Positions 5,379 through 57,176 of a stretch of 62,583 bases of DNA are shown here, one piece after another. The position numbers and the translations under genes were made by a program. Position 1 is the stretch's first letter; every line of letters starts with the position of its first letter. The stretch is from contig JAAYOI010000019.1 in the NCBI GenBank assembly GCA_012520435.1, forward strand, positions 1 to 62,583. The letters are read 5' to 3'. A model generated the notes under the pieces. That model saw only the letters and a program-made list of their open reading frames with translations. It did no database searches and was not told the origin of the DNA. Source of the stretch: Mollicutes bacterium (GTDB lineage: Bacteria > Bacillota_I > Bacilli_A > RF39 > UBA660).

Positions 5379-5439
5379 TTTTCCACCTCGCTATTTTATT
5401 ATTATAACATTTTTAATACTATAAAAAAAGAAAAAAAAT

Positions 5440-5889
5440 TTACTTTATTCTTTTTGTTTTAAAAAATTCTTTTAATATTTTTTGAGATTCTTCTTCTAAA
5501 ACACCTCGTACAATTTTTACCTTATGATTATTTTTTTTATTGTTTAAAACATTTTCTATGCTACCAGCAAAACCAAATTTTTCGTTTGTTGTTGCATATA
5601 TTACCCGGGAAATCCTTGATTGTATTATAGCACCAGCACACATTAAACAAGGTTCTAAAGTTATATATAATTCACATCCATCTAAATACCATGAATTTAA
5701 TTTTTTACAAGCTTTTTCAATTGCTATTATTTCTGCATGTCTGGTTGCTATTTTTTTTATTTCTTTTTGATTATGTGCCCGGGAAATAATTTTATTATCT
5801 TTTACAATTACAGCACCAACAGGAACATCGCCATTTAAAAAAGATTTTTTTGCTTCTTTTAAAGCTTCTAACATATATTTTTCCTTCAT
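5440..5889 (-). CDS. tadA: tRNA-specific adenosine deaminase TadA
   Basis: Start moved to ATG 5889 (MKEKYMLEAL..., GGGTGGTG SD), because the ORF-track start at 5919 overlaps the SRP RNA. CDA motifs HAEIIAI and PCLMCAGAI. Confidence 0.9.
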   Translation of the reverse strand: MKEKYMLEALKEAKKSFLNGDVPVGAVIVKDNKIISRAHNQKEIKKIATRHAEIIAIEKACKKLNSWYLDGCELYITLEPCLMCAGAIIQSRISRVIYATTNEKFGFAGSIENVLNNKKNNHKVKIVRGVLEEESQKILKEFFKTKRIK

Positions 5890-5910
5890 TTTCACCACCC
5901 ATAAAAAAGT

Positions 5911-5983
5911 GACACGCACATATAGGGATTCTTAAGGCTGCTATTTTCCAATCCTGACCTGGTTCGAATATATATGTCGTGTC
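5911..5983 (-). ncRNA. ffs: Small (4.5S-type, about 73 nt) signal recognition particle RNA
   Basis: The minus strand reads GACACGACAUAUAUAUUCGAACCAGGUCAGGAUUGGAAAAUAGCAGCCUUAAGAAUCCCUAUAUGUGCGUGUC. It has the conserved helix-8 ACCAGGUCAGG..GGAA..AGCAGCC, pairing 5' and 3' ends, a U6 tail, and an upstream TTGATT/TATATT promoter-like pair. Confidence 0.8.
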
Positions 5984-6041
5984 TATATAAATATATACTA
6001 TTATTATTAATAAATCAACTTTTGTTATATATTTTTATTAT

Positions 6042-6275
6042 TGTTTCACGTGAAACATATATTTTTATTAATTAATGTTTCACGTGGAACATAAGGATTT
6101 TTACTTGCTTATATGTTTCACGTGAAACATAAGGATTTTTACTTGCTTATATGTTTCACGTGGAACATAAAGAGTTATTTATTAGATATTTTACATTAAA
6201 TATGAATTTTTCTATCTATTAATGTTCCACGTGAAACTAAATCATTGTTTAAAAAATCATGTTTCACGTGAAACA
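6042..6275. promoter_or_regulatory. parS: Array of six parS (ParB/Spo0J centromere) sites
   Basis: 16-mers at 6042, 6076, 6114, 6152, 6223 and 6260 read TGTTTCACGTGAAACA (x3), TGTTTCACGTGGAACA (x2) and TGTTCCACGTGAAACT. The consensus is TGTTNCACGTGAAACA. Confidence 0.85.
6075..6170. repeat. 38-bp tandem direct repeat (about 2.5 copies), each unit carrying one parS
   Basis: 6075-6112 and 6113-6150 are identical except for one G/A inside parS (ATGTTTCACGTGRAACATAAGGATTTTTACTTGCTTAT). A third partial copy spans 6151-6170. Confidence 0.9.
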
Positions 6276-6284
6276 TGATTTTTT
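6251..6284 (-). terminator. Probable gyrA intrinsic terminator formed by a 34-nt perfect palindrome containing parS-6
   Basis: AAAAAATCATGTTTCACGTGAAACATGATTTTTT. The stem is flanked by A6/T6 and overlaps the gyrA stop codon by 2 nt. Confidence 0.55.
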
Positions 6285-8721
6285 ATTTAGAACTAGCTTC
6301 ATCTTCTTTTTTAATTAAAGCTATTGTACTAACTCTTTGTTGATCACGAAGATTAATTAATCTTACTCCCTGTGCTATTCTACCTGTTTGTGATACTTGC
6401 TCTAAAAAAATTCTAATAATTATGCCATGATTAGTTGTTATCATTAACTCTTCATCACCATAAACAGTTTTGAATGCAACAATTTTTCCATTTTTTTCTG
6501 TTATATTTAATGTTTTTACACCTTTACTACCACGATGTGTCATTCTATATTCATTTATTTTAGTTCTTTTCCCATAACCATTTTCAGTAACAACTAAAAT
6601 TTCTTGATCTGATGTCCCCGTTTCGCAACCTACACATTTACTATTACTAACTTCAATTCCTTTAACACCGGCTGCTGTTCTTCCCATAACTCTAACTTCT
6701 TTTTCATCAAATCTAACCATTCTACCATCTGATGTTCCCATTAATATCTCACTATCACCGTTAGTCTTTTTAACAGATATTAATTGATCATCCTCTTTTA
6801 ATGTAATTGCAATTTTTCCTGTTTTTCTAATATTTTCAAATTCTAATAATAAAGTACGCTTAATCAATCCATTTTGTGTTCCAAATACAATATATTTGTA
6901 TTCTTCATTATTACTTACTTTTAGCATTGCTTTAATTTCTTCATCACTTTCAAGAGGTAATAAATTAATTATAGGTAAACCTTTTGCTTGACGATTATAG
7001 GCTGGAACCTCATAACCTTTAATCCTATAAACCTTACCTTTATTTGTAAAGAACATTAAATAATCATGCGTTTTTAATGATATTATATTTTCAACAAAAT
7101 CGTCTTCATTTGTTGTCATTCCTTTTATTCCAACACCACCACGATTTTGAGTTTTATAAGTTTCAGCTTCTATTCTTTTTATATAGCCTTTATTGGTTAA
7201 AGTTACAACTATATCTTCAATAGGTATCAACGATTCATCTTCAATATTTTCCATAGAAGTCATATCTATTCTTGTTCGACGTTCATCATTATACTTTCCT
7301 TTTATTTCTAATAATTCTTCTTTTATTATTTTTAAAACTTTTTCTTCAGATGCTAAAATTGATCTATATTCTTCAATTAATTTTTTTAATTCTATTAATT
7401 CTTCTTCTATTTTACTTCTTTCTAAACTTGTTAATCTTCTTAATTTCATTTCAAGAATAGCTTGCGCTTGTGGTTCTGTTAATAAAAATTTACTAATTAA
7501 TTGTTGTAATGCATCTTCATCATTCTTTGAATTTTTAATTGTATTTACTACATCATCAATATTATCGAGCGCTATTTGCAAACCTTCTATAATATGTGCG
7601 CGTTTTTCTGATTTATCTAAATCAAATTTTGTTCTTCTTATAATAATTGATTTTTGATAATCAATATATTTCTCAATAATATCAACAAGTCCTAAAGTCA
7701 TCGGACGACCATCAACTAACATTAAAAAATTAATACCATAAGAAATTTGTAATGGTGTATGTTTATATAAATTATTTAATAAAACATTTGAATTATAACC
7801 ATTTTTAACATCAATTACAATTCTAATTCCTTCTAAAGCTGATTCGTCATTTAGATTGCTAATTCCTTCTGTTTGCTTATCTCTAACTAATTCTGCAATT
7901 TTAGTAATCAAATCCGATTTGTTAACTTGATATGGTATTTCTGTAATAATTATTCGTACTTTATCATTATCTTCTTCTATTTCTGCTTTTCCTCTAACTA
8001 TGATAGTTCCTTTTCCAGTTTCATACGCTCTTCTTATACCACTATTTCCTAAAATATAACCTGCTGTAGGAAAATCTGGACCTTTTATGTATTCCATTAA
8101 TTCATCAACAGTAATATCTTTATTTTCAATATAGGCAATACATCCATCAATAACTTCACCTAAATTATGAGGTGGAATATTAGTCGCCATACCAACAGCT
8201 ATACCCATATTTCCATTAACTAAAATATTAGGATACCTAGATGGTAAAACGACTGGTTCTTTTCTTTGACCATCATAATTATCAACGAAATCTACAGTAT
8301 CTTTATTTATATCACGCAAAAGTTCCATAGAAATTTTAGATAATCTTGCTTCAGTATAACGTGAAGCCGCTGGACTATCACCATCAATTGAACCAAAATT
8401 TCCATGACCATCAACTAAAATATGTCTATATGTAAAATCTTGGGCCATTCTTACCATACTATCATAAATTGCTGTATCTCCATGTGGATGATAATGTCCC
8501 ATTACAGCCCCTACTGCATTCGCACTTTTTTGATGTTTTTTATCGGGAAACATTCCTTCTTCATACATTGTATATAATATACGTCTATGAACTGGCTTTA
8601 ACCCGTCTCGAAGATCAGGAATTGCTCTTGAAACTATTACACTCATTGAATAATCTAAAAATGACGTTCTAACTTCATTAGATATATCAACTTCTATCAT
8701 TTTATCTTTAATATTTTCCAT
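6283..8721 (-). CDS. gyrA: DNA gyrase subunit A
   Basis: 812 aa. [14 protein letters not shown] and the catalytic-Tyr region [10 protein letters not shown]. Lies downstream of gyrB. Confidence 0.97.
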
Positions 8722-11924: not shown

Positions 11925-11952
11925 AAAAAGGTAAATTTAAATTTACCTTTTA
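11925..11952. terminator. Hairpin terminator after comK (bidirectional palindrome)
   Basis: AAAAGGTAAATTT/AAATTTACCTTTT perfect inverted repeat overlapping the comK stop. Confidence 0.55.
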
Positions 11953-12402
11953 TAATAATTTTCTTTTCCTTAGAATTGATTCTAAACGAGTTGCTCTTAA
12001 AATTTGATTGTCAAGTGAACCATAAGAAATATCTAATTCTAAGGTTTGACCATTTTTAAATATAATAATACTGCAATTCTCTTTTTTTTGGTAAATCTCT
12101 ATGTGATTTAAAGAAATCCAAAAGCAATTATCAAAACGTGGTGAACTTGTAGGAAAAAAGATAATTTCTTTTGTTTCTTCAATAATTATAGGAGATTTGT
12201 AACTTACACCTATAAGGCTTTTTGTTCCTTCAAATCTTCCTACATAAGAACTACCAAAAAATTTGCAACTATCATCGATAACCTCAGTAGTAGATTTATT
12301 AATGATATAATCGTTTTCTTCTTCAATAATTCTAGATACTTTAGGTTCTATCGGGATAATTGCTAATGTAGAACTATTAATTTCATATTTCTCAATTTGC
12401 AT
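11950..12402 (-). CDS. comK: ComK-family competence transcription factor (short form, 150 aa)
   Basis: Aligns block by block with recalled B. subtilis ComK: YEINSSTLAIIP, IDDSCKFFGSSYVGRFEGT, YKSPIIIE..IIFFPTSSPRFDNCFWIS, FKNGQTLELDISYGSLDNQILRATRL. GGAGG SD upstream. Confidence 0.85.
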   Translation of the reverse strand: MQIEKYEINSSTLAIIPIEPKVSRIIEEENDYIINKSTTEVIDDSCKFFGSSYVGRFEGTKSLIGVSYKSPIIIEETKEIIFFPTSSPRFDNCFWISLNHIEIYQKKENCSIIIFKNGQTLELDISYGSLDNQILRATRLESILRKRKLL

Positions 12403-15186: not shown

Positions 15187-15478
15187 AAAAACACCCCATT
15201 TATTTCATCACTATTAATATTCTACAATATTTTTATATAAAAGCCAATATAAATAAATAAAAATTAAAATTTTCCACAATAAAACAAAGATAAAAATAAT
15301 GAAAATTATACTTTTCCACAAAAATTTTAAAAAATTATACAGTGTTATTAACATTGTTAATTAATTTATCCACAAAAATGTGGATAAGTAGATTAATAAC
15401 AGTAAATATTTGATTTTAAATATAAAAATATTGTGGAAAATTTTGTTGAAATATGATTTATTTGTAATTTTTAAAATG
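15187..15478. promoter_or_regulatory. oriC: oriC, dnaA-upstream part: DnaA-box cluster
   Basis: TTTTCCACA at 15270 and 15312. Perfect TTATCCACA at 15366-15374 faces perfect TGTGGATAA at 15379-15387. TGTGGAAAA at 15432-15440. Confidence 0.8.
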
Positions 15479-19095: not shown

Positions 19096-20094
19096 ATGGA
19101 TTTAGTAAGATTTGCCCTAGTAGGAAACTATAAAAGATTTTATCAAGATTTAAAGAAAATTGGAAAAGAAAAAAAGAAATCACCTCTTTTAATGTTTATT
19201 GATACTGCTTTATGTGTAATTTTTATAGGTGGGGGGTTACAAGATTATTTAAATTACCGTTTTTATGAAAAAAGCTGGAAAGAAAGAAGAAAATATGTAA
19301 CGATTGGATATCAAGCCAAAATGTATAAAAAAATGGCTAACATAAAATATGCTCCTTTCTTTTCCAACAAACCTAATTTTTTGCGAAATTTTCGCAAATA
19401 CACCAAAAGAGATTGGTACGATTCAGAAATGGAATATGAAAAATTAGAAGAATTCTTAAGTATACATGATACGTTTATTTTAAAACCTATTATTGGTTTA
19501 GGTGGAACTAATGTTCAAAAGATAGAGACTAAAACAATTGTTGATCGAAAGAAATTTTATGAAGATTTAAAAAACAAAAAAATGTTTATTGAAGAATTTA
19601 TCGTTCAAGATCCAAGATGGGGAGAAATATGTCCTAATAGTGTTAATACATTAAGAGTGATGACTTCAGTTGTAAATGGTAAACCAAAACTTTTTTTTGC
19701 TGCTGCTCGAATTGGTAGTGGCAAATATGTTGTTGATAATTTTCATGTTGGTGGAATGGCAGCATTAATTGATTTAGAAACGGGAAAATTAATTGGTAAT
19801 GGTTTTACTAAAAAATTAGATGAATATGAAAGACACCCTGTTACTAATATTAAAATTGATGGATATGAAATACCATATTGGAATGAAGTAAAAGAAATGG
19901 TTTTAGAAGCAGCACTAGTCAATGAAAATGTTAATGTTGTTGGTTGGGATGTAGCAATTACCAAAGATGGTCCAGTTATTATAGAAGGAAATCGGGGTCC
20001 AGGGTGGGATTTAGTACAAGTTTTATTAAATAAAGGAACAAAATATATGTTAGAAGATATAAAAAAAGAGATGAAACAACATGGTTTGTGGTAA
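19096..20094 (+). CDS. Orphan ATP-grasp protein (ATPgrasp_ST / RimK-related alpha-L-glutamate-ligase-like)
   Basis: 332 aa. NTLRVMT..RIGSGKYVVDNFHVGGMAALIDLETGKL..HPVT..GYEIPYW..VGWDVAITKDGPVIIEGNRGPGWDLVQ matches the family signature as I recall it. AGGAGG SD. Confidence 0.7.
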   Translation: MDLVRFALVGNYKRFYQDLKKIGKEKKKSPLLMFIDTALCVIFIGGGLQDYLNYRFYEKSWKERRKYVTIGYQAKMYKKMANIKYAPFFSNKPNFLRNFRKYTKRDWYDSEMEYEKLEEFLSIHDTFILKPIIGLGGTNVQKIETKTIVDRKKFYEDLKNKKMFIEEFIVQDPRWGEICPNSVNTLRVMTSVVNGKPKLFFAAARIGSGKYVVDNFHVGGMAALIDLETGKLIGNGFTKKLDEYERHPVTNIKIDGYEIPYWNEVKEMVLEAALVNENVNVVGWDVAITKDGPVIIEGNRGPGWDLVQVLLNKGTKYMLEDIKKEMKQHGLW

Positions 20095-22058: not shown

Positions 22059-22755
22059 AAAAGAATTTATTGAATACTTAAAAAAAATAAATATTAAAAT
22101 TAATGACGAGCAATTAAAACAATTTGATAGATATTATCAATTGTTAATAGAATGGAATGAAAAAATTAATTTAACATCTATTATTGATAAAAAACAAGTA
22201 TATTTAAAACATTTTTATGATAGTGCAACGATTGCTCAAGTAATTGATCTAAATAATTTAGATAATTTGTGTGATGTAGGTACAGGGGCTGGTTTCCCCG
22301 GATTAGTTCTTAAAATTCTATACCCTAACTTAAATGTAACATTAATTGATTCTTTAAATAAAAGAATTAAATTTTTAGAAAAAGTAATTGTAGAATTAGG
22401 ACTTAAAAAAGTCGAAGTTATTCATGCTAGAGTTGAAGAATATGCAAAAAATAATCGTGAAAAATTTGATGTTGTAACAGCTCGTGCTGTTGCTCCTCTT
22501 AATATCCTGTTAGAATATTGTTTACCATTGGTAAAAGTTGAAAAATATTTTATTCCAATGAAAGGTAATATTTCCCAGGAAATAGGAGAATGTCAAAAAG
22601 CTCTCAAAATACTTAATGGAATTGTTATTGAAAAGAAAGAATTTTTATTACCTATTGAAAACAGCCATCGAACCATTTTAAAAATAAAAAAAATGAGTGC
22701 AACATCTAATGAATACCCAAGAAAAAATAGTGAAATAAAAAAAAGACCATTATAA
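22051..22755 (+). CDS. rsmG: 16S rRNA (guanine527-N7)-methyltransferase RsmG
   Basis: 234 aa. DVGTGAGFPGLVLKI. ATGA-type overlap with mnmG. Confidence 0.93.
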   Translation: MTEKEFIEYLKKINIKINDEQLKQFDRYYQLLIEWNEKINLTSIIDKKQVYLKHFYDSATIAQVIDLNNLDNLCDVGTGAGFPGLVLKILYPNLNVTLIDSLNKRIKFLEKVIVELGLKKVEVIHARVEEYAKNNREKFDVVTARAVAPLNILLEYCLPLVKVEKYFIPMKGNISQEIGECQKALKILNGIVIEKKEFLLPIENSHRTILKIKKMSATSNEYPRKNSEIKKRPL

Positions 22756-22870: not shown

Positions 22871-24445
22871 ATGGAAAATGAAAAAAAAGTTGTAGAACTA
22901 GATTTAGATGATATTTTACCAAATAGGTTTCAACCTAGAATAAAATTTGATGAAGGAAAAATTAATGAATTGGCTGAATCAATTAAAGAACATGGTGTTA
23001 TTCAACCAATAATTGTTCGGCCAATTGGTGATAAATATGAAATAATTGCTGGTGAAAGACGTTATAAAGCTAGTGTTATTGCAGGAAAATCAACAATACC
23101 TGCAATTATAACCGATTTAAATGATCGAGAAAGCGCAGAAATTGCTTTGATCGAAAATGTTCAAAGAGAAGATTTGTCACCAATTGAAGAAGCTATTTCA
23201 TATCGTAAAATATTAAATATGGGGTTAACACAAGAACAATTAGCAGACAAATTAGATCGTAATCAATCAACTATTTCTAATAAATTACGTTTGCTTAATT
23301 TAGAGGAAGATGTACAAGAAGCATTATTAAATAATAAAATTTCTGAAAGACATGCGAGATCTTTATTACGTTTACATGATCCTAAACAACAAGTTGCTAT
23401 GTTGGAAAGAATTATAAATGAAAGGTTAACTGTTCGTAGAACTGATGAAGATATTGATAAATTATTAAATGCAGACAATAATAATGAAAAAAATATATTA
23501 ATGCAAAATATTGAAGAAAAAGGAGAAACAATGGATAATAAAGAAAATATAGATTTTAATATTCCTTCTGAACCAATAATTAATGATGCTGATGAACAAC
23601 CAATAGATTTTATTGATGTAAATAATCCAATCAAACCTGAACTATTATTAGATTTTGAAGAACAAGAACCGGTTGTTGAAAACTTTAATATAAATAATGA
23701 AACTAGGTTTATAGATAATGCTGAAAAACCAGGCTTTCTTGATATTGACAAAATTGAAACAGAAGCACAAGATATACATATAGATAAACCGATTCCTAAT
23801 ATTGATGATTTATTGCAATTAAATTCTACTAGTACACCTATCGAATCTATTGATGAAGAATCTGATAAAGAACAAGAAAAACAACCAATCGAAGATAACA
23901 TTGATAATATTTGGACAAATAAATTCTTTGATATTGAAAATAATGCACCAGAAAATACCGCAGTTCCGCAAGAACCAGAAGAAACGGATAACATTTTTAG
24001 TGGCGATACTTTTGTTGACATAAGCCCTGATAACATTATACCAACAGATGAAAATGTAAATATTGATGAAGATTTGAATAAAGAAATAGAGTTTGATAAT
24101 AACTCATTCCCTGAAATAAACAATATATATAATAATGAAGATAATATAGATATGCCAGACATATTTAATGCTTATGAAACAGATAATGAAGATATTGATA
24201 ATTTAGGAATGAATCTTGATAATGTTATTACTAATGATAATATTGAGGAAATTAAAAAAGAAAATGAGATTTTATTTCAAAATAATGTTGAAGCAGGAGC
24301 TGATTTAAAAAGTATAATTAGTACAATTCGTAATTGTGCATCAGAAATAGAGAAAATGGGTTATGTAATAGAAACAGAAGAATTAGATTTTGAAAACGAA
24401 TATCGTGTAACCTTTAAAATAAATAAAGAAAAAAGTAAATTTTAA
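22871..24445 (+). CDS. ParB/Noc-family protein, Noc-type, with an acidic low-complexity insertion of about 270 aa
   Basis: 524 aa. PNRFQPR, GERRYKA (box II), HTH NQSTISNKLRLL, ISERHARSL, and a C-terminal Noc-like domain IISTIRN..MGYVIETEELDFENEYRVTFKINK. Residues about 200-474 are D/E/N-rich. It sits in the rsmG-noc position. Confidence 0.85.
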   Translation: MENEKKVVELDLDDILPNRFQPRIKFDEGKINELAESIKEHGVIQPIIVRPIGDKYEIIAGERRYKASVIAGKSTIPAIITDLNDRESAEIALIENVQREDLSPIEEAISYRKILNMGLTQEQLADKLDRNQSTISNKLRLLNLEEDVQEALLNNKISERHARSLLRLHDPKQQVAMLERIINERLTVRRTDEDIDKLLNADNNNEKNILMQNIEEKGETMDNKENIDFNIPSEPIINDADEQPIDFIDVNNPIKPELLLDFEEQEPVVENFNINNETRFIDNAEKPGFLDIDKIETEAQDIHIDKPIPNIDDLLQLNSTSTPIESIDEESDKEQEKQPIEDNIDNIWTNKFFDIENNAPENTAVPQEPEETDNIFSGDTFVDISPDNIIPTDENVNIDEDLNKEIEFDNNSFPEINNIYNNEDNIDMPDIFNAYETDNEDIDNLGMNLDNVITNDNIEEIKKENEILFQNNVEAGADLKSIISTIRNCASEIEKMGYVIETEELDFENEYRVTFKINKEKSKF

Positions 24446-50358: not shown

Positions 50359-50388
50359 AAAATAGATACATTTAAGTATCTATTTTTT
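50357..50388. terminator. Bidirectional terminator between the convergent truA and lipoprotein genes
   Basis: AAAAAATAGATAC-ATTTAA-GTATCTATTTTTT. Confidence 0.7.
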
Positions 50389-51157
50389 AATGATTATTTC
50401 TTTTATTTTCATACCACTTTTCAATATTATCTAAAGTTTTATTTGTTATTTTCTTGATATTTTCTTTAATATTATTATATTTATCTTTAATGTTATTATA
50501 ATTATCTTCTCCAATATTATCTTTTATATGGTTTTTGGCTAAATCTATTTTATAACTAATATAATTCTTAATATTTTCTAGTTTTCCTTTAATAACAATT
50601 TTATAATCAGGATATTTTTTAACAATTATTGCATCAATTTCTTTAGCAACTTTTATTATTTCTTCTTTGGCTTTTTCACCTAAAGAATTAAAAGTAATAC
50701 CATTTATTTCTTTTTCATAGAAGATAAAATCAATTATTGTAATAAATGCTTCATTAATTTTATCTTTAACTTCATTTAAATTAGATTCATTGACATATTT
50801 AGAAACATTATCCTTTATATCATTAAAATATTTTATAATTTTATCTTCTTTATTAGAATCCTTATTAACATCGTTTTGGTTAGTGCTGTAAGTAGTAATA
50901 TTATTATTACTTTGGTTATCATCATTTACTTTGGTTGTATTTTCAGTATTAGTTGATATTTTAGTTGAATATGTACTTGTTTTGTTATTATTTATATTTT
51001 TAATTAATTTATCATTTTCAACAGTTATAATAGTATTTACTTCCTTAATTGCATTATATTCTTTATTTTTACAACCTGTTGTATTAATTAAAACAAAACC
51101 AATTATAATAATAACTAATAATTTATTACTCATATATTTCATATTCTTGAACCTCAT
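50387..51157 (-). CDS. Hypothetical lipoprotein, N/T/K-rich
   Basis: Signal peptide plus lipobox ...LINTTGC. Start ambiguous (M1, M6 or M9). One of only two '-' strand genes seen on the right arm. No recognisable family. Confidence 0.7.
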   Translation of the reverse strand: MRFKNMKYMSNKLLVIIIIGFVLINTTGCKNKEYNAIKEVNTIITVENDKLIKNINNNKTSTYSTKISTNTENTTKVNDDNQSNNNITTYSTNQNDVNKDSNKEDKIIKYFNDIKDNVSKYVNESNLNEVKDKINEAFITIIDFIFYEKEINGITFNSLGEKAKEEIIKVAKEIDAIIVKKYPDYKIVIKGKLENIKNYISYKIDLAKNHIKDNIGEDNYNNIKDKYNNIKENIKKITNKTLDNIEKWYENKRNNH

Positions 51158-56243: not shown

Positions 56244-57176
56244 ATGGCTAACAAAATATTCAAAAACTTAGATGAGCAAATAGAAATATTAAGATCCAAA
56301 GGACTTATTATAAATGATGAAGAAAAAACAAAGGATATATTATTCCGTGAAAACTACTTTTTTGTTAATGGTTATCGTCATTTATTTATGAAATCAGCTA
56401 AAGAAAGAAAATTTATACCAGGAACAACTTTTGAAGAATTATATGGAACTTTTGTTTTTGATCGTCGTGTTCGTAATATCTTTTTTAAAAATATCTTAAT
56501 TGTTGAAAATAATATAAAATCAATTATTAGTTATACTTTATCTAAAAAATATGGTTTTAAAGAAAAAGATTATTTAAATCCTAGAAATTTCACTCAAGAT
56601 CGAATGAAAGCTAGACAAGTTCATGATATTTTAAATAAAATGAAAAGACAAATTAGAGTTAATGGTAAACAGCATCGAGCAACTTTGCACTACTTAAGTA
56701 ATTATGGTTATATTCCAATGTGGATTTTAGTTAAAGTTTTATCACTTGGAATAATTGCCGAATTATATAACATTTTAAAACCAGAAGATCAATTAACAAT
56801 AGCTGAATTTTACAATTTAGATCCTGAAACCTTATCTATTTATTTAAGTATTTTAGCTAATGCTCGAAATTTATGTGCTCATGAAGATATTCTTTATGAT
56901 AATCGTATGCAAAGATCTATTCCTGACTGTCGTTATCACTATTTATTAAATATTGATATGACTGATGATGAATATCAATATGGAAAAAATGATTTATATG
57001 CTTTAGTTATTATTTTAAAGCAAATGTTAACTGATATTGAGTTTCGTGAATTTATTAATGAAATAGGATACGAAATAGATATTTTAGATGGTAAAGTTGA
57101 TACTGTACCATTAGTTACGATTTTAAATAAAATGGGATTTCCCGATAATTGGCGAGATATTGTAAATATTGATTAG
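56244..57176 (+). CDS. Abi_2-family (AbiD/AbiF-like) abortive-infection protein with a HEPN Rx4H motif
   Basis: 310 aa. The N-terminus LDEQIEILRSKGLIINDEEKTKDILFRENYFFVNGY is typical of Abi_2 proteins. ANARNLCAHED gives R-x4-H. Confidence 0.85.
   Translation: MANKIFKNLDEQIEILRSKGLIINDEEKTKDILFRENYFFVNGYRHLFMKSAKERKFIPGTTFEELYGTFVFDRRVRNIFFKNILIVENNIKSIISYTLSKKYGFKEKDYLNPRNFTQDRMKARQVHDILNKMKRQIRVNGKQHRATLHYLSNYGYIPMWILVKVLSLGIIAELYNILKPEDQLTIAEFYNLDPETLSIYLSILANARNLCAHEDILYDNRMQRSIPDCRYHYLLNIDMTDDEYQYGKNDLYALVIILKQMLTDIEFREFINEIGYEIDILDGKVDTVPLVTILNKMGFPDNWRDIVNID

Follow-up and report, generated by a model that had tools for sequence, protein, structure and literature searches.

A strain-variable array of six parS sites between gyrA and ffs, close to the replication origin of a Mollicutes bacterium

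Six palindromes lie within 234 bp between gyrA and ffs in the genome of a Mollicutes bacterium (contig JAAYOI010000019.1), which raises the question of whether they form a chromosomal centromere and, if so, which protein they serve. The window analysed here is the whole stretch of 62,583 nucleotides (62.6 kb) that contains them; it spans a replication origin, and the genome has a GC content of 26%. A scan of both strands of the whole window with the parS consensus TGTTNCACGTGAAACA, with shuffled sequence as the control, found six matching 16-mers, starting at 6042, 6076, 6114, 6152, 6223 and 6260. Each has no mismatch or one mismatch to the consensus: on the better strand five of the six have none and the remaining one has a single mismatch. 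The six palindromic sites give 12 strand-matches, compared with 0.07 expected, and none of 100 shuffles reached 12. The sites are as follows (no strand is assigned to them).

6042 to 6057: parS site 1, TGTTTCACGTGAAACA, a perfect palindrome
6076 to 6091: parS site 2, TGTTTCACGTGGAACA, which is TGTTCCACGTGAAACA on the minus strand; it opens the first full 38-bp unit
6114 to 6129: parS site 3, a perfect palindrome within the second full 38-bp unit
6152 to 6167: parS site 4, TGTTTCACGTGGAACA, within the partial third unit
6223 to 6238: parS site 5, TGTTCCACGTGAAACT, with one mismatch, at the last base
6260 to 6275: parS site 6, a perfect palindrome

No other parS copy with two or fewer mismatches was found across the 62.6 kb, and at three or fewer mismatches the window adds just three poor matches outside the array. 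The remaining CACGTG cores in the window have 3-7 flank mismatches each. In the flanking contigs L001 and L130 no further copies were found at two or fewer mismatches. A dispersed REP-like repeat was rejected, as no other copies were seen in the 62.6-kb window. An array of Noc-binding sites (NBS) was also rejected: all six sites have G1 and A6, whereas NBS has A1 and C6.

The position of the array on the chromosome is defined by the following features.

5898 to 5991, minus strand: ffs, the small SRP RNA and downstream neighbour of the array (Rfam RF00169, 55 bits; gathering score 40)
5990 to 6028, minus strand: two overlapping sigma-70-like hexamer pairs, ATAACA-17-AATAAT and TTGATT-17-TATATT (consensus matches only)
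6283 to 8721, minus strand: gyrA, the upstream neighbour of the array (Pfam DNA_topoisoIV, 3e-165, and six GyrA C-terminal repeats)
15270 to 15440, no strand assigned: DnaA-box cluster (oriC), upstream of dnaA, with five boxes that include both perfect TTATCCACA boxes in the window

The GC skew switches sign at 12-16 kb and, together with the DnaA boxes at 15270-15440, this places the array about 9 kb from oriC. The genes that run leftward from the origin on the minus strand are dnaA, dnaN, comK, recF, gyrB and gyrA, followed by the array and then by ffs, tadA, dnaX, ybaB and recR. Rightward, on the plus strand, are rnpA, yidC, jag, mnmE, an ATP-grasp gene, mnmG, rsmG, a ParB-family gene, uvrB and ribosomal-protein operons. 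The hexamer pairs are directly upstream of ffs, and parS site 1 is 14 bp upstream of them. A preliminary description of this DNA had reported six 16-mers that match the parS consensus at 15-16 of 16 positions, with no other convincing parS in the window, and had placed them between gyrA and ffs at about 9 kb from the DnaA-box cluster. The motif scan bears out the first two points, the Pfam and Rfam matches confirm the neighbours, and the box cluster and skew switch agree with the distance.

There is a 38-bp tandem repeat within the array.

6075 to 6170, no strand assigned: 2.5 units of the 38-bp repeat, covering sites 2-4; the copy number differs between strains

The centre-to-centre spacings of the six sites are 34, 38, 38, 71 and 37 bp, and all six belong to one 44-nt repeat family. 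TRF gives a period of 38 bp over 6038-6170, with 3.6 copies and 88% matches. The units at 6075-6112 and 6113-6150 are 97% identical, and their lone difference, G/A at 6087/6125, falls on the mirror position of the degenerate N of parS. For a comparison between strains, three further independent assemblies (L001, L002 and L003), from anaerobic-digester-type metagenomes, were found via the exact GyrA protein. Six sites are also present in L001, which is 99.99% identical to the window. L002 (99.69% identical) and L003 (99.56% identical) have five sites each and lack 36 bp and 38 bp of the 38-bp repeat, respectively, and the deletion junctions differ between the two. We therefore reject an assembly artefact, because the array is present in all three of these assemblies. 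The polymorphism of five versus six sites within the species argues for recent unit duplication, and the data support the conclusion that the array has lately gained or lost units by duplication or deletion. The spacings given in the preliminary description, and its 38-bp duplication that differs only at the degenerate position, were reproduced by the site spacing, TRF and the unit alignment. Its proposal that the array grew by recent unit duplication is supported by the 97% identical units and the five- and six-site strains, and the copy-number variation of the 38-bp unit that it suggested looking for in the gyrA-ffs spacer is found between near-identical strains.

One more candidate lies in the 71-bp gap that separates sites 4 and 5.

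6187 to 6202, no strand assigned: candidate decayed seventh parS, TATTTTACATTAAATA, a palindrome with five mismatches

TATTTTACATTAAATA bisects the gap (35 and 36 bp). As the frequency of 16-mers with at most five mismatches is 0.0027 per position, about 0.1 would be expected in the gap, and the position in phase with the array makes a chance origin less likely. We tentatively regard this sequence as a decayed seventh parS.

At the other end of the array, site 6 is part of a larger structure.

6250 to 6285, minus strand: perfect palindrome of 36 nt with site 6 at its centre; it takes in the gyrA stop codon (6283-6285)

The predicted RNA hairpin has a 16-bp stem (-17.2 kcal/mol, z = -5.1), none of 200 shuffles was as stable, and it is flanked by runs of A6 and U6. 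A consensus terminator scan of 5400-6700 called no terminator, the site 6 hairpin included. The A-run, the 16-bp stem and the U-run at the gyrA stop together predict an intrinsic terminator of gyrA, and the segment is likely to act as this terminator while doubling as a parS. The extended stem and U-run are confined to site 6 among the six sites.

A pattern scan identified six species-level relatives with GyrA proteins 64-70% identical, which are MAGs labelled 'uncultured Bacilli/Firmicutes bacterium'. All six have perfect arrays, with 3-11 parS, within the gyrA-ffs-tadA-dnaX stretch. The spacer used and the unit length (35, 42, 44, 45 or 55 bp) vary among them.

L101 and L019: three sites immediately 3' of gyrA
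L104: two sites in the gyrA-ffs spacer and a group of four, one of them with a mismatch, in the tadA-ffs spacer
L016: 4 x 44 bp in the ffs-tadA spacer and six more sites
L040: 3 x 35 bp in the tadA-dnaX spacer
L042: 10 x 55 bp between tadA and dnaX and one more site

Three of the six extra sites in L016 are inside the dnaX reading frame. Perfect parS persist in these relatives despite the shifts of unit length and position. In the arrays of L042 and of L028, an unrelated Lachnospiraceae genome, there are mismatches at 2/288 positions in the 16-mers compared with 129/630 in the spacers (Fisher p = 2e-20), the L028 spacer count being inflated somewhat by one-base indels. L042 by itself gives 1/160 and 59/390, respectively, and the spacer divergence in the two arrays is 15-29%. 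Near-invariant 16-mers between diverged spacers indicate that the motif is maintained by selection, and the data show that the 16-mer has been kept by selection while the array was rebuilt repeatedly. On the combined grounds of motif, origin proximity and selection, the six sites in the window qualify as chromosomal parS. Metagenome TadA matches from distant relatives without arrays (48-59% identity) were used as controls, and in the 80 loci (575 kb) around these more distant tadA homologues no two sites lie within 100 bp of each other.

Dense parS arrays are not confined to this lineage. We scanned one genome per species for three sites with gaps of 10-40 bp; the figures given here are lower bounds. 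At least 120 species-representative genomes from many phyla carry three or more sites at comparable density. Among the matches listed are at least 47 Collinsella genomes (3 x 39 bp), and Lachnospiraceae, Streptococcus, Acidobacteriota, Flavobacterium, Streptomyces, Massilia, Cupriavidus and Parcubacteria, among other groups, are also represented. At least 17 matches have four or more sites, and at least four arrays are larger than that in the window (10, 8, 7 and 7 sites). In addition, 23 IMG/VR contigs unrelated to the window carry the same pattern, and one of them (L233) has eight sites, six of them at 38 bp. The preliminary description had called the dense arrangement unusual, which was overstated, given the density shared by these genomes and viral contigs. 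The array in the window lies at the dense end of a common architecture and is ordinary in kind. This suggests that dense parS arrays are widespread on chromosomes and mobile elements. We know of no earlier description of dense parS arrays as an architecture, and tandem chromosomal parS arrays may already have been described in the literature.

Among the matches listed, the majority of arrays adjoin rsmG and parB. Wherever an array adjoins a ParB-family gene, the locus encodes a ParB of the R...G/S type; 68 of the 71 alignable ParB-family genes in these loci are R-type, and the other three are Noc-type genes that each lie beside an R-type ParB, again among the matches listed. The presence of an R...G/S-type ParB beside arrays fits the rule that R173 is invariable in parS binders (PMC7383237).

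The locus in the window is different, and essentially all of the larger ORFs there were annotated. ORF annotation and a six-frame search for the deviant Walker A motif found no ParA in the window, and ORF annotation and a six-frame search for GERR found no parS-type ParB (R173 with a small residue at 201). Neither was found in the flanks, which cover 10 kb on the right and about 3.7 kb on the left (about 14 kb). No parA or parB lies within 16 kb of the array, the context being recF-gyrB-gyrA on one side and ffs-tadA-dnaX on the other, and a ParB HMM run over all fetched loci found no R-type ParB from this lineage. Most likely, the genome encodes a canonical ParB beyond the 62.6-kb window. There is a precedent in S. 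aureus, where spo0J is unlinked from noc.

The window does encode one ParB-family protein, and there are two NBS-like sites.

22871 to 24445, plus strand: ParB-family gene, 524 aa, directly after rsmG; the only one in the window
22569 to 22584, no strand assigned: NBS-like palindrome TATTTCCCAGGAAATA, inside rsmG, with one mismatch to the Noc-binding site
5599, no strand assigned: second NBS-like site, with two mismatches

The position after rsmG is that of noc in the B. subtilis gene order. In the window and in relatives, uvrB occupies the ancestral soj-spo0J position after the noc-like gene: in the two relatives compared, the genes run rsmG, QKNR gene, uvrB, and neither soj nor spo0J is present there. 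The protein has a ParB_N domain that retains the GERR CTP-binding motif, an HTH, an acidic linker of about 270 aa and a short C-terminal domain. It scores 278.5 bits against NCBIfam nucleoid_noc, which is below the cutoff of 315, and 177 bits against the generic parB_part domain model. Its best PDB matches are Noc (7NG0, 7NFU and 7OL9), followed by Spo0J/ParB structures. The alignment to Noc begins at about Noc residue 26, which is residue 3-5 of the query, and the ORF has no possible upstream extension. All of the best 120 homologues have an FQPR motif at residues 18-22, and the N-terminal segment of Noc is absent from them and from the protein itself. We take the missing segment to be the amphipathic membrane-targeting helix. 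Without an N-terminal membrane-targeting segment, the protein is not a classical Noc.

ParB and Noc are distinguished at positions 173, 179, 184 and 201 (Caulobacter numbering), which are R, T, A and G in ParB and Q, K, K and R in Noc (PMC7383237). In deep mutational scanning R173 was invariable in parS-specific variants, and about 91% of NBS-specific variants had K or R at 179 or 184 (PMC7383237). Q173 makes no hydrogen bond to guanine 1 of parS and contacts adenine 1 of NBS, and R201 contacts guanine -6 of NBS, so that the NBS-specific signature is Q173 and R201 with K/R at 179 or 184 (PMC7383237). The corresponding residues of the protein in the window are Q132, K138, N143 and R160 (Q-K-N-R). 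They match Noc Q173, K179, K184 and R201 at three of the four positions, with N in place of K at 184, and the same four residues are found in 113 of the best 120 homologues. From these residues the protein is predicted to recognise NBS-type DNA rather than the array, and it is probably not the array's binder.

The NBS-like site at 22569 is about 290 bp upstream of the Noc-like gene, and its 15-mer is invariant in the relatives L125 and L127 while the flanking codons vary. In L040 there is a perfect TATTTCCCGGGAAATA (NBS) in the gyrA-ffs spacer. The locus therefore resembles the Noc-NBS system of Firmicutes in having a gene after rsmG, Noc as the best matches, three of the four Noc residues and NBS-like sites. 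It differs from that system in that the array is parS, and the protein differs from Noc in its lack of an N-terminal membrane segment, the N at 184 and the long acidic linker.

Taken together, we favour the reading, with a probability of about 0.7, that the array is a functional origin-proximal ParB-loading cluster of six parS, remodelled by unit recombination, with its cognate ParB encoded elsewhere. Unequal recombination or slippage of 34-38-bp units, each with one 16-bp palindrome, would have built the array and would still be remodelling it. Each palindrome would nucleate a CTP-bound ParB dimer, which would close into a clamp and slide onto the flanking DNA. As there are six loaders within 234 bp, one high-flux loading platform would be expected. 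Such a platform would concentrate ParB, and thereby SMC-ScpAB condensin, on one side of oriC at a distance of about 9 kb, and the six loaders would seed a dense partition complex near oriC. If the genome has a ParA, the platform would also serve origin segregation. The array would fill a quiet interval between the gyrA terminator (the site 6 stem) and the ffs promoter. The cognate ParB is expected to be of the R173/G201 type, with the Noc-type paralogue in the window predicted to act at NBS-like sites. ParB nucleation at parS and the recruitment of SMC-ScpAB are the general model in Firmicutes (PMC7022226), and it is by analogy with this model that we infer ParB binding, clamp loading and condensin recruitment at the array.

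The perfect parS arrays are at odds with an origin locus whose sole ParB-family gene is a Noc-type paralogue, and the accepted ParB/Noc specificity code would need revision if the genome has no canonical ParB. One alternative takes this mismatch at face value: the Noc-like Q-K-N-R protein would be the only ParB-family protein of the lineage and would bind the parS arrays, alone or with NBS-like sites. The Soj-Spo0J pair would have been lost, and the tasks of marking the origin and loading condensin would have passed to a Noc-derived paralogue without the membrane helix. Consistent with this, the window and flanks hold no other ParB or ParA, the order rsmG-QKNR gene-uvrB is conserved in relatives that lack soj/spo0J, and the protein has kept the GERR motif. 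The membrane-targeting segment is missing from all of the best 120 homologues, unlike classical Noc, and because selection acts on the arrays in this clade, they must have a binder of some kind. Binding of the arrays by this protein is nevertheless unlikely, because R173 is invariable in parS-specific variants and Q173 with R201 is the NBS signature (PMC7383237). The protein also has plausible targets of its own, the NBS-type sites in L040 and in rsmG of the window and of L127, and Noc-type paralogues elsewhere are accompanied by an R-type ParB among the array loci listed. That the lineage has lost both Soj and Spo0J and that its conserved but fast-evolving arrays are served by a Noc-derived Q-K-N-R protein with a long acidic linker and no membrane helix, through a functional reversal or as a dual parS/NBS binder, seems to us slightly more doubtful still. 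If true, this would be a reversal from ParB to Noc to ParB, or a dual binder, and would break the published R173 rule.

The possibility that the repeats are not a centromere at all, and are a neutral minisatellite, terminators or insulators, or operators of an unrelated regulator, would suit the strong terminator-like hairpin at site 6, the location between two co-directional transcription units and the easily changed copy number, but it is very improbable because none of the six copies departs from the universal parS consensus at more than one of the 16 positions, the extended stem and U-run occur at site 6 only, the near-invariant core between spacers that are 15-29% diverged (L042 and L028) is the opposite of neutral decay and the same motif is arrayed beside parB genes in many unrelated phyla.

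On the favoured reading of a ParB-loading cluster, the closest likeness is to the Spo0J/ParB sites of B. subtilis, with which the array shares an identical 16-bp palindrome, TGTTNCACGTGAAACA, an origin-proximal location and a presumed role in ParB nucleation and condensin loading. The B. subtilis parS sites are spread over a large ori domain. In contrast, the array has six sites in 234 bp, tandem units, a strain-variable number of sites and no parB nearby. The consensus and roles of the B. subtilis sites, of which there are about 10, have been reviewed (PMC7022226). P. aeruginosa (parS1-4), C. glutamicum, M. xanthus and Caulobacter also have several redundant sites near oriC. Those clusters extend over kilobases to tens of kilobases. 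The array differs from them in its centre-to-centre distances of 34-38 bp and its clear tandem-repeat ancestry. A single parS is sufficient, with further sites considered to make the system more robust (PMC7022226).

The origin locus in the window carries no parA, and in this respect it is like the ParA-less system of S. pneumoniae, which has an orphan parB, four parS and no ParA (PMC7022226). The orphan parB is known in S. pneumoniae, whereas no parS-type ParB was found in the window or its flanks of about 14 kb. By analogy, the array probably serves mainly to load condensin and organise the origin, not for transport driven by ParA.

The array would thus be a natural chromosomal centromere that is built like a plasmid centromere, from units of about 38 bp with one canonical parS each. 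Its copy number varies between co-existing strains, and arrays have been rebuilt repeatedly in related genomes. This provides a natural series of 5, 6, 10 and 11 sites in which the effect of parS number and spacing on the rate of clamp loading, on partition complex size and on SMC loading could be tested.

Finally, the preliminary description had likened the array to plasmid centromeres. In the sopC locus of the F plasmid a 43-bp unit is repeated 12 times in tandem, and every unit has one inverted repeat to which SopB binds. The array is similar in having direct repeats of about 40 bp with one palindromic site for a ParB-family protein in each. It differs from sopC in that it is chromosomal, lies beside gyrA, uses the universal chromosomal parS and has no adjacent parAB operon. 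The comparison therefore stands for the tandem units of about 38 bp, each with a palindrome, and fails for the location and the missing operon. A BLAST search of plasmids with the array gave two weak matches only. One of them is the C. perfringens plasmid pJFP838A, which is unrelated to the window and carries four variant parS-like sites with a spacing of 35 bp.

The gene at 22871-24445 (+ strand) of the window encodes a member of a distinct ParB/Noc subfamily, whose proteins are 400-650 aa long. They contain ParB_N and HTH domains with the Noc-type residues Q-K-N-R at the specificity positions, and are without an N-terminal membrane-targeting segment. There is an acidic low-complexity linker of 200-350 aa and a conserved C-terminal domain of ~45 aa (...TIRNCA.TIEK.G..V.TEELDFE..Y.V.F.I.K). 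Among the 120 best homologues, which come mainly from uncultured 'Bacilli/Tenericutes/Firmicutes' MAGs, 113 or more show this combination of features. The gene order rsmG, ParB/Noc subfamily gene, uvrB is found in the window and in both relatives checked.

Palindromes resembling the Noc-binding site (NBS) are present in the window and in two relatives, L040 and L104, that carry parS arrays in the gyrA-ffs-tadA-dnaX stretch:

Window 22569-22584, NBS-like palindrome inside rsmG, 1 mismatch
Window 5599-5614, weaker NBS-like palindrome in tadA, close to the parS array
L040 3692-3707, perfect NBS in the gyrA-ffs spacer
L104 6152-6167, weaker NBS-like palindrome near the L104 parS array

Relatives preserve the DNA sequence of the site within rsmG. 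Around gyrA, ffs and tadA, NBS-like and parS sites thus occur together in three genomes.

The window array possibly includes a decayed seventh parS. The sequence TATTTTACATTAAATA at 6187-6202 lies at the exact midpoint between the fourth and fifth parS sites and is a palindrome with 5 mismatches, having A or T at five positions where the consensus has G or C.

Dense arrays also occur in other chromosomes. In the relative L016, three perfect parS with a 45-bp period (7874-7979) fall within the dnaX reading frame and encode the repeated peptides NVSRGT, DVPRET and NVPRET, which makes this a predicted centromere array embedded in coding sequence. Collinsella is a second lineage with a fixed dense array: among the matches listed, a 3 x 39-bp parS triplet is found in at least 47 species-level genomes (locus L007 and 46 other loci).

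Collinsella locus L011 7886-7979, example of the parS triplet

Canonical parS, 3-8 sites at 26-55-bp spacing, are present on 23 putative viral contigs from IMG/VR (L213-L235). None of these is related to the window, and they may be phage-plasmids or else misclassified chromosomal fragments. In the 404-kb Clostridium perfringens plasmid pJFP838A, an unannotated intergenic region contains four variant parS-like palindromes at 35-bp spacing (TGTTTCATGTGAAACA twice and TGTTTCACGTTAAACA twice).

IMG/VR contig L233 6137-6460, eight parS, six of them at a 38-bp period
pJFP838A locus L236 5001-5122 (record 7548-7669), variant array

Finally, four other genes of the window were noted:

11950-12402 (- strand), comK
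19096-20094 (+ strand), sugar-transfer-associated ATP-grasp gene
50387-51157 (- strand), 256-aa ORF
56244-57176 (+ strand), Abi_2 (abortive-infection-like) gene

The 256-aa ORF is on the strand opposite to every neighbour and has no Pfam match at E <= 1e-6 and nothing but noise at E <= 10. The Abi_2 gene is flanked by cell-wall amidase and HtrA-like protease genes, upstream of groES-groEL. The neighbours of the ATP-grasp gene are mnmE and mnmG, between which it is located; the relative L127 also has the gene, whereas L125 lacks it. comK is inserted between recF and dnaN in an otherwise canonical dnaA-dnaN-recF-gyrB-gyrA block, and this insertion is kept in the relatives L016, L101 and L125.
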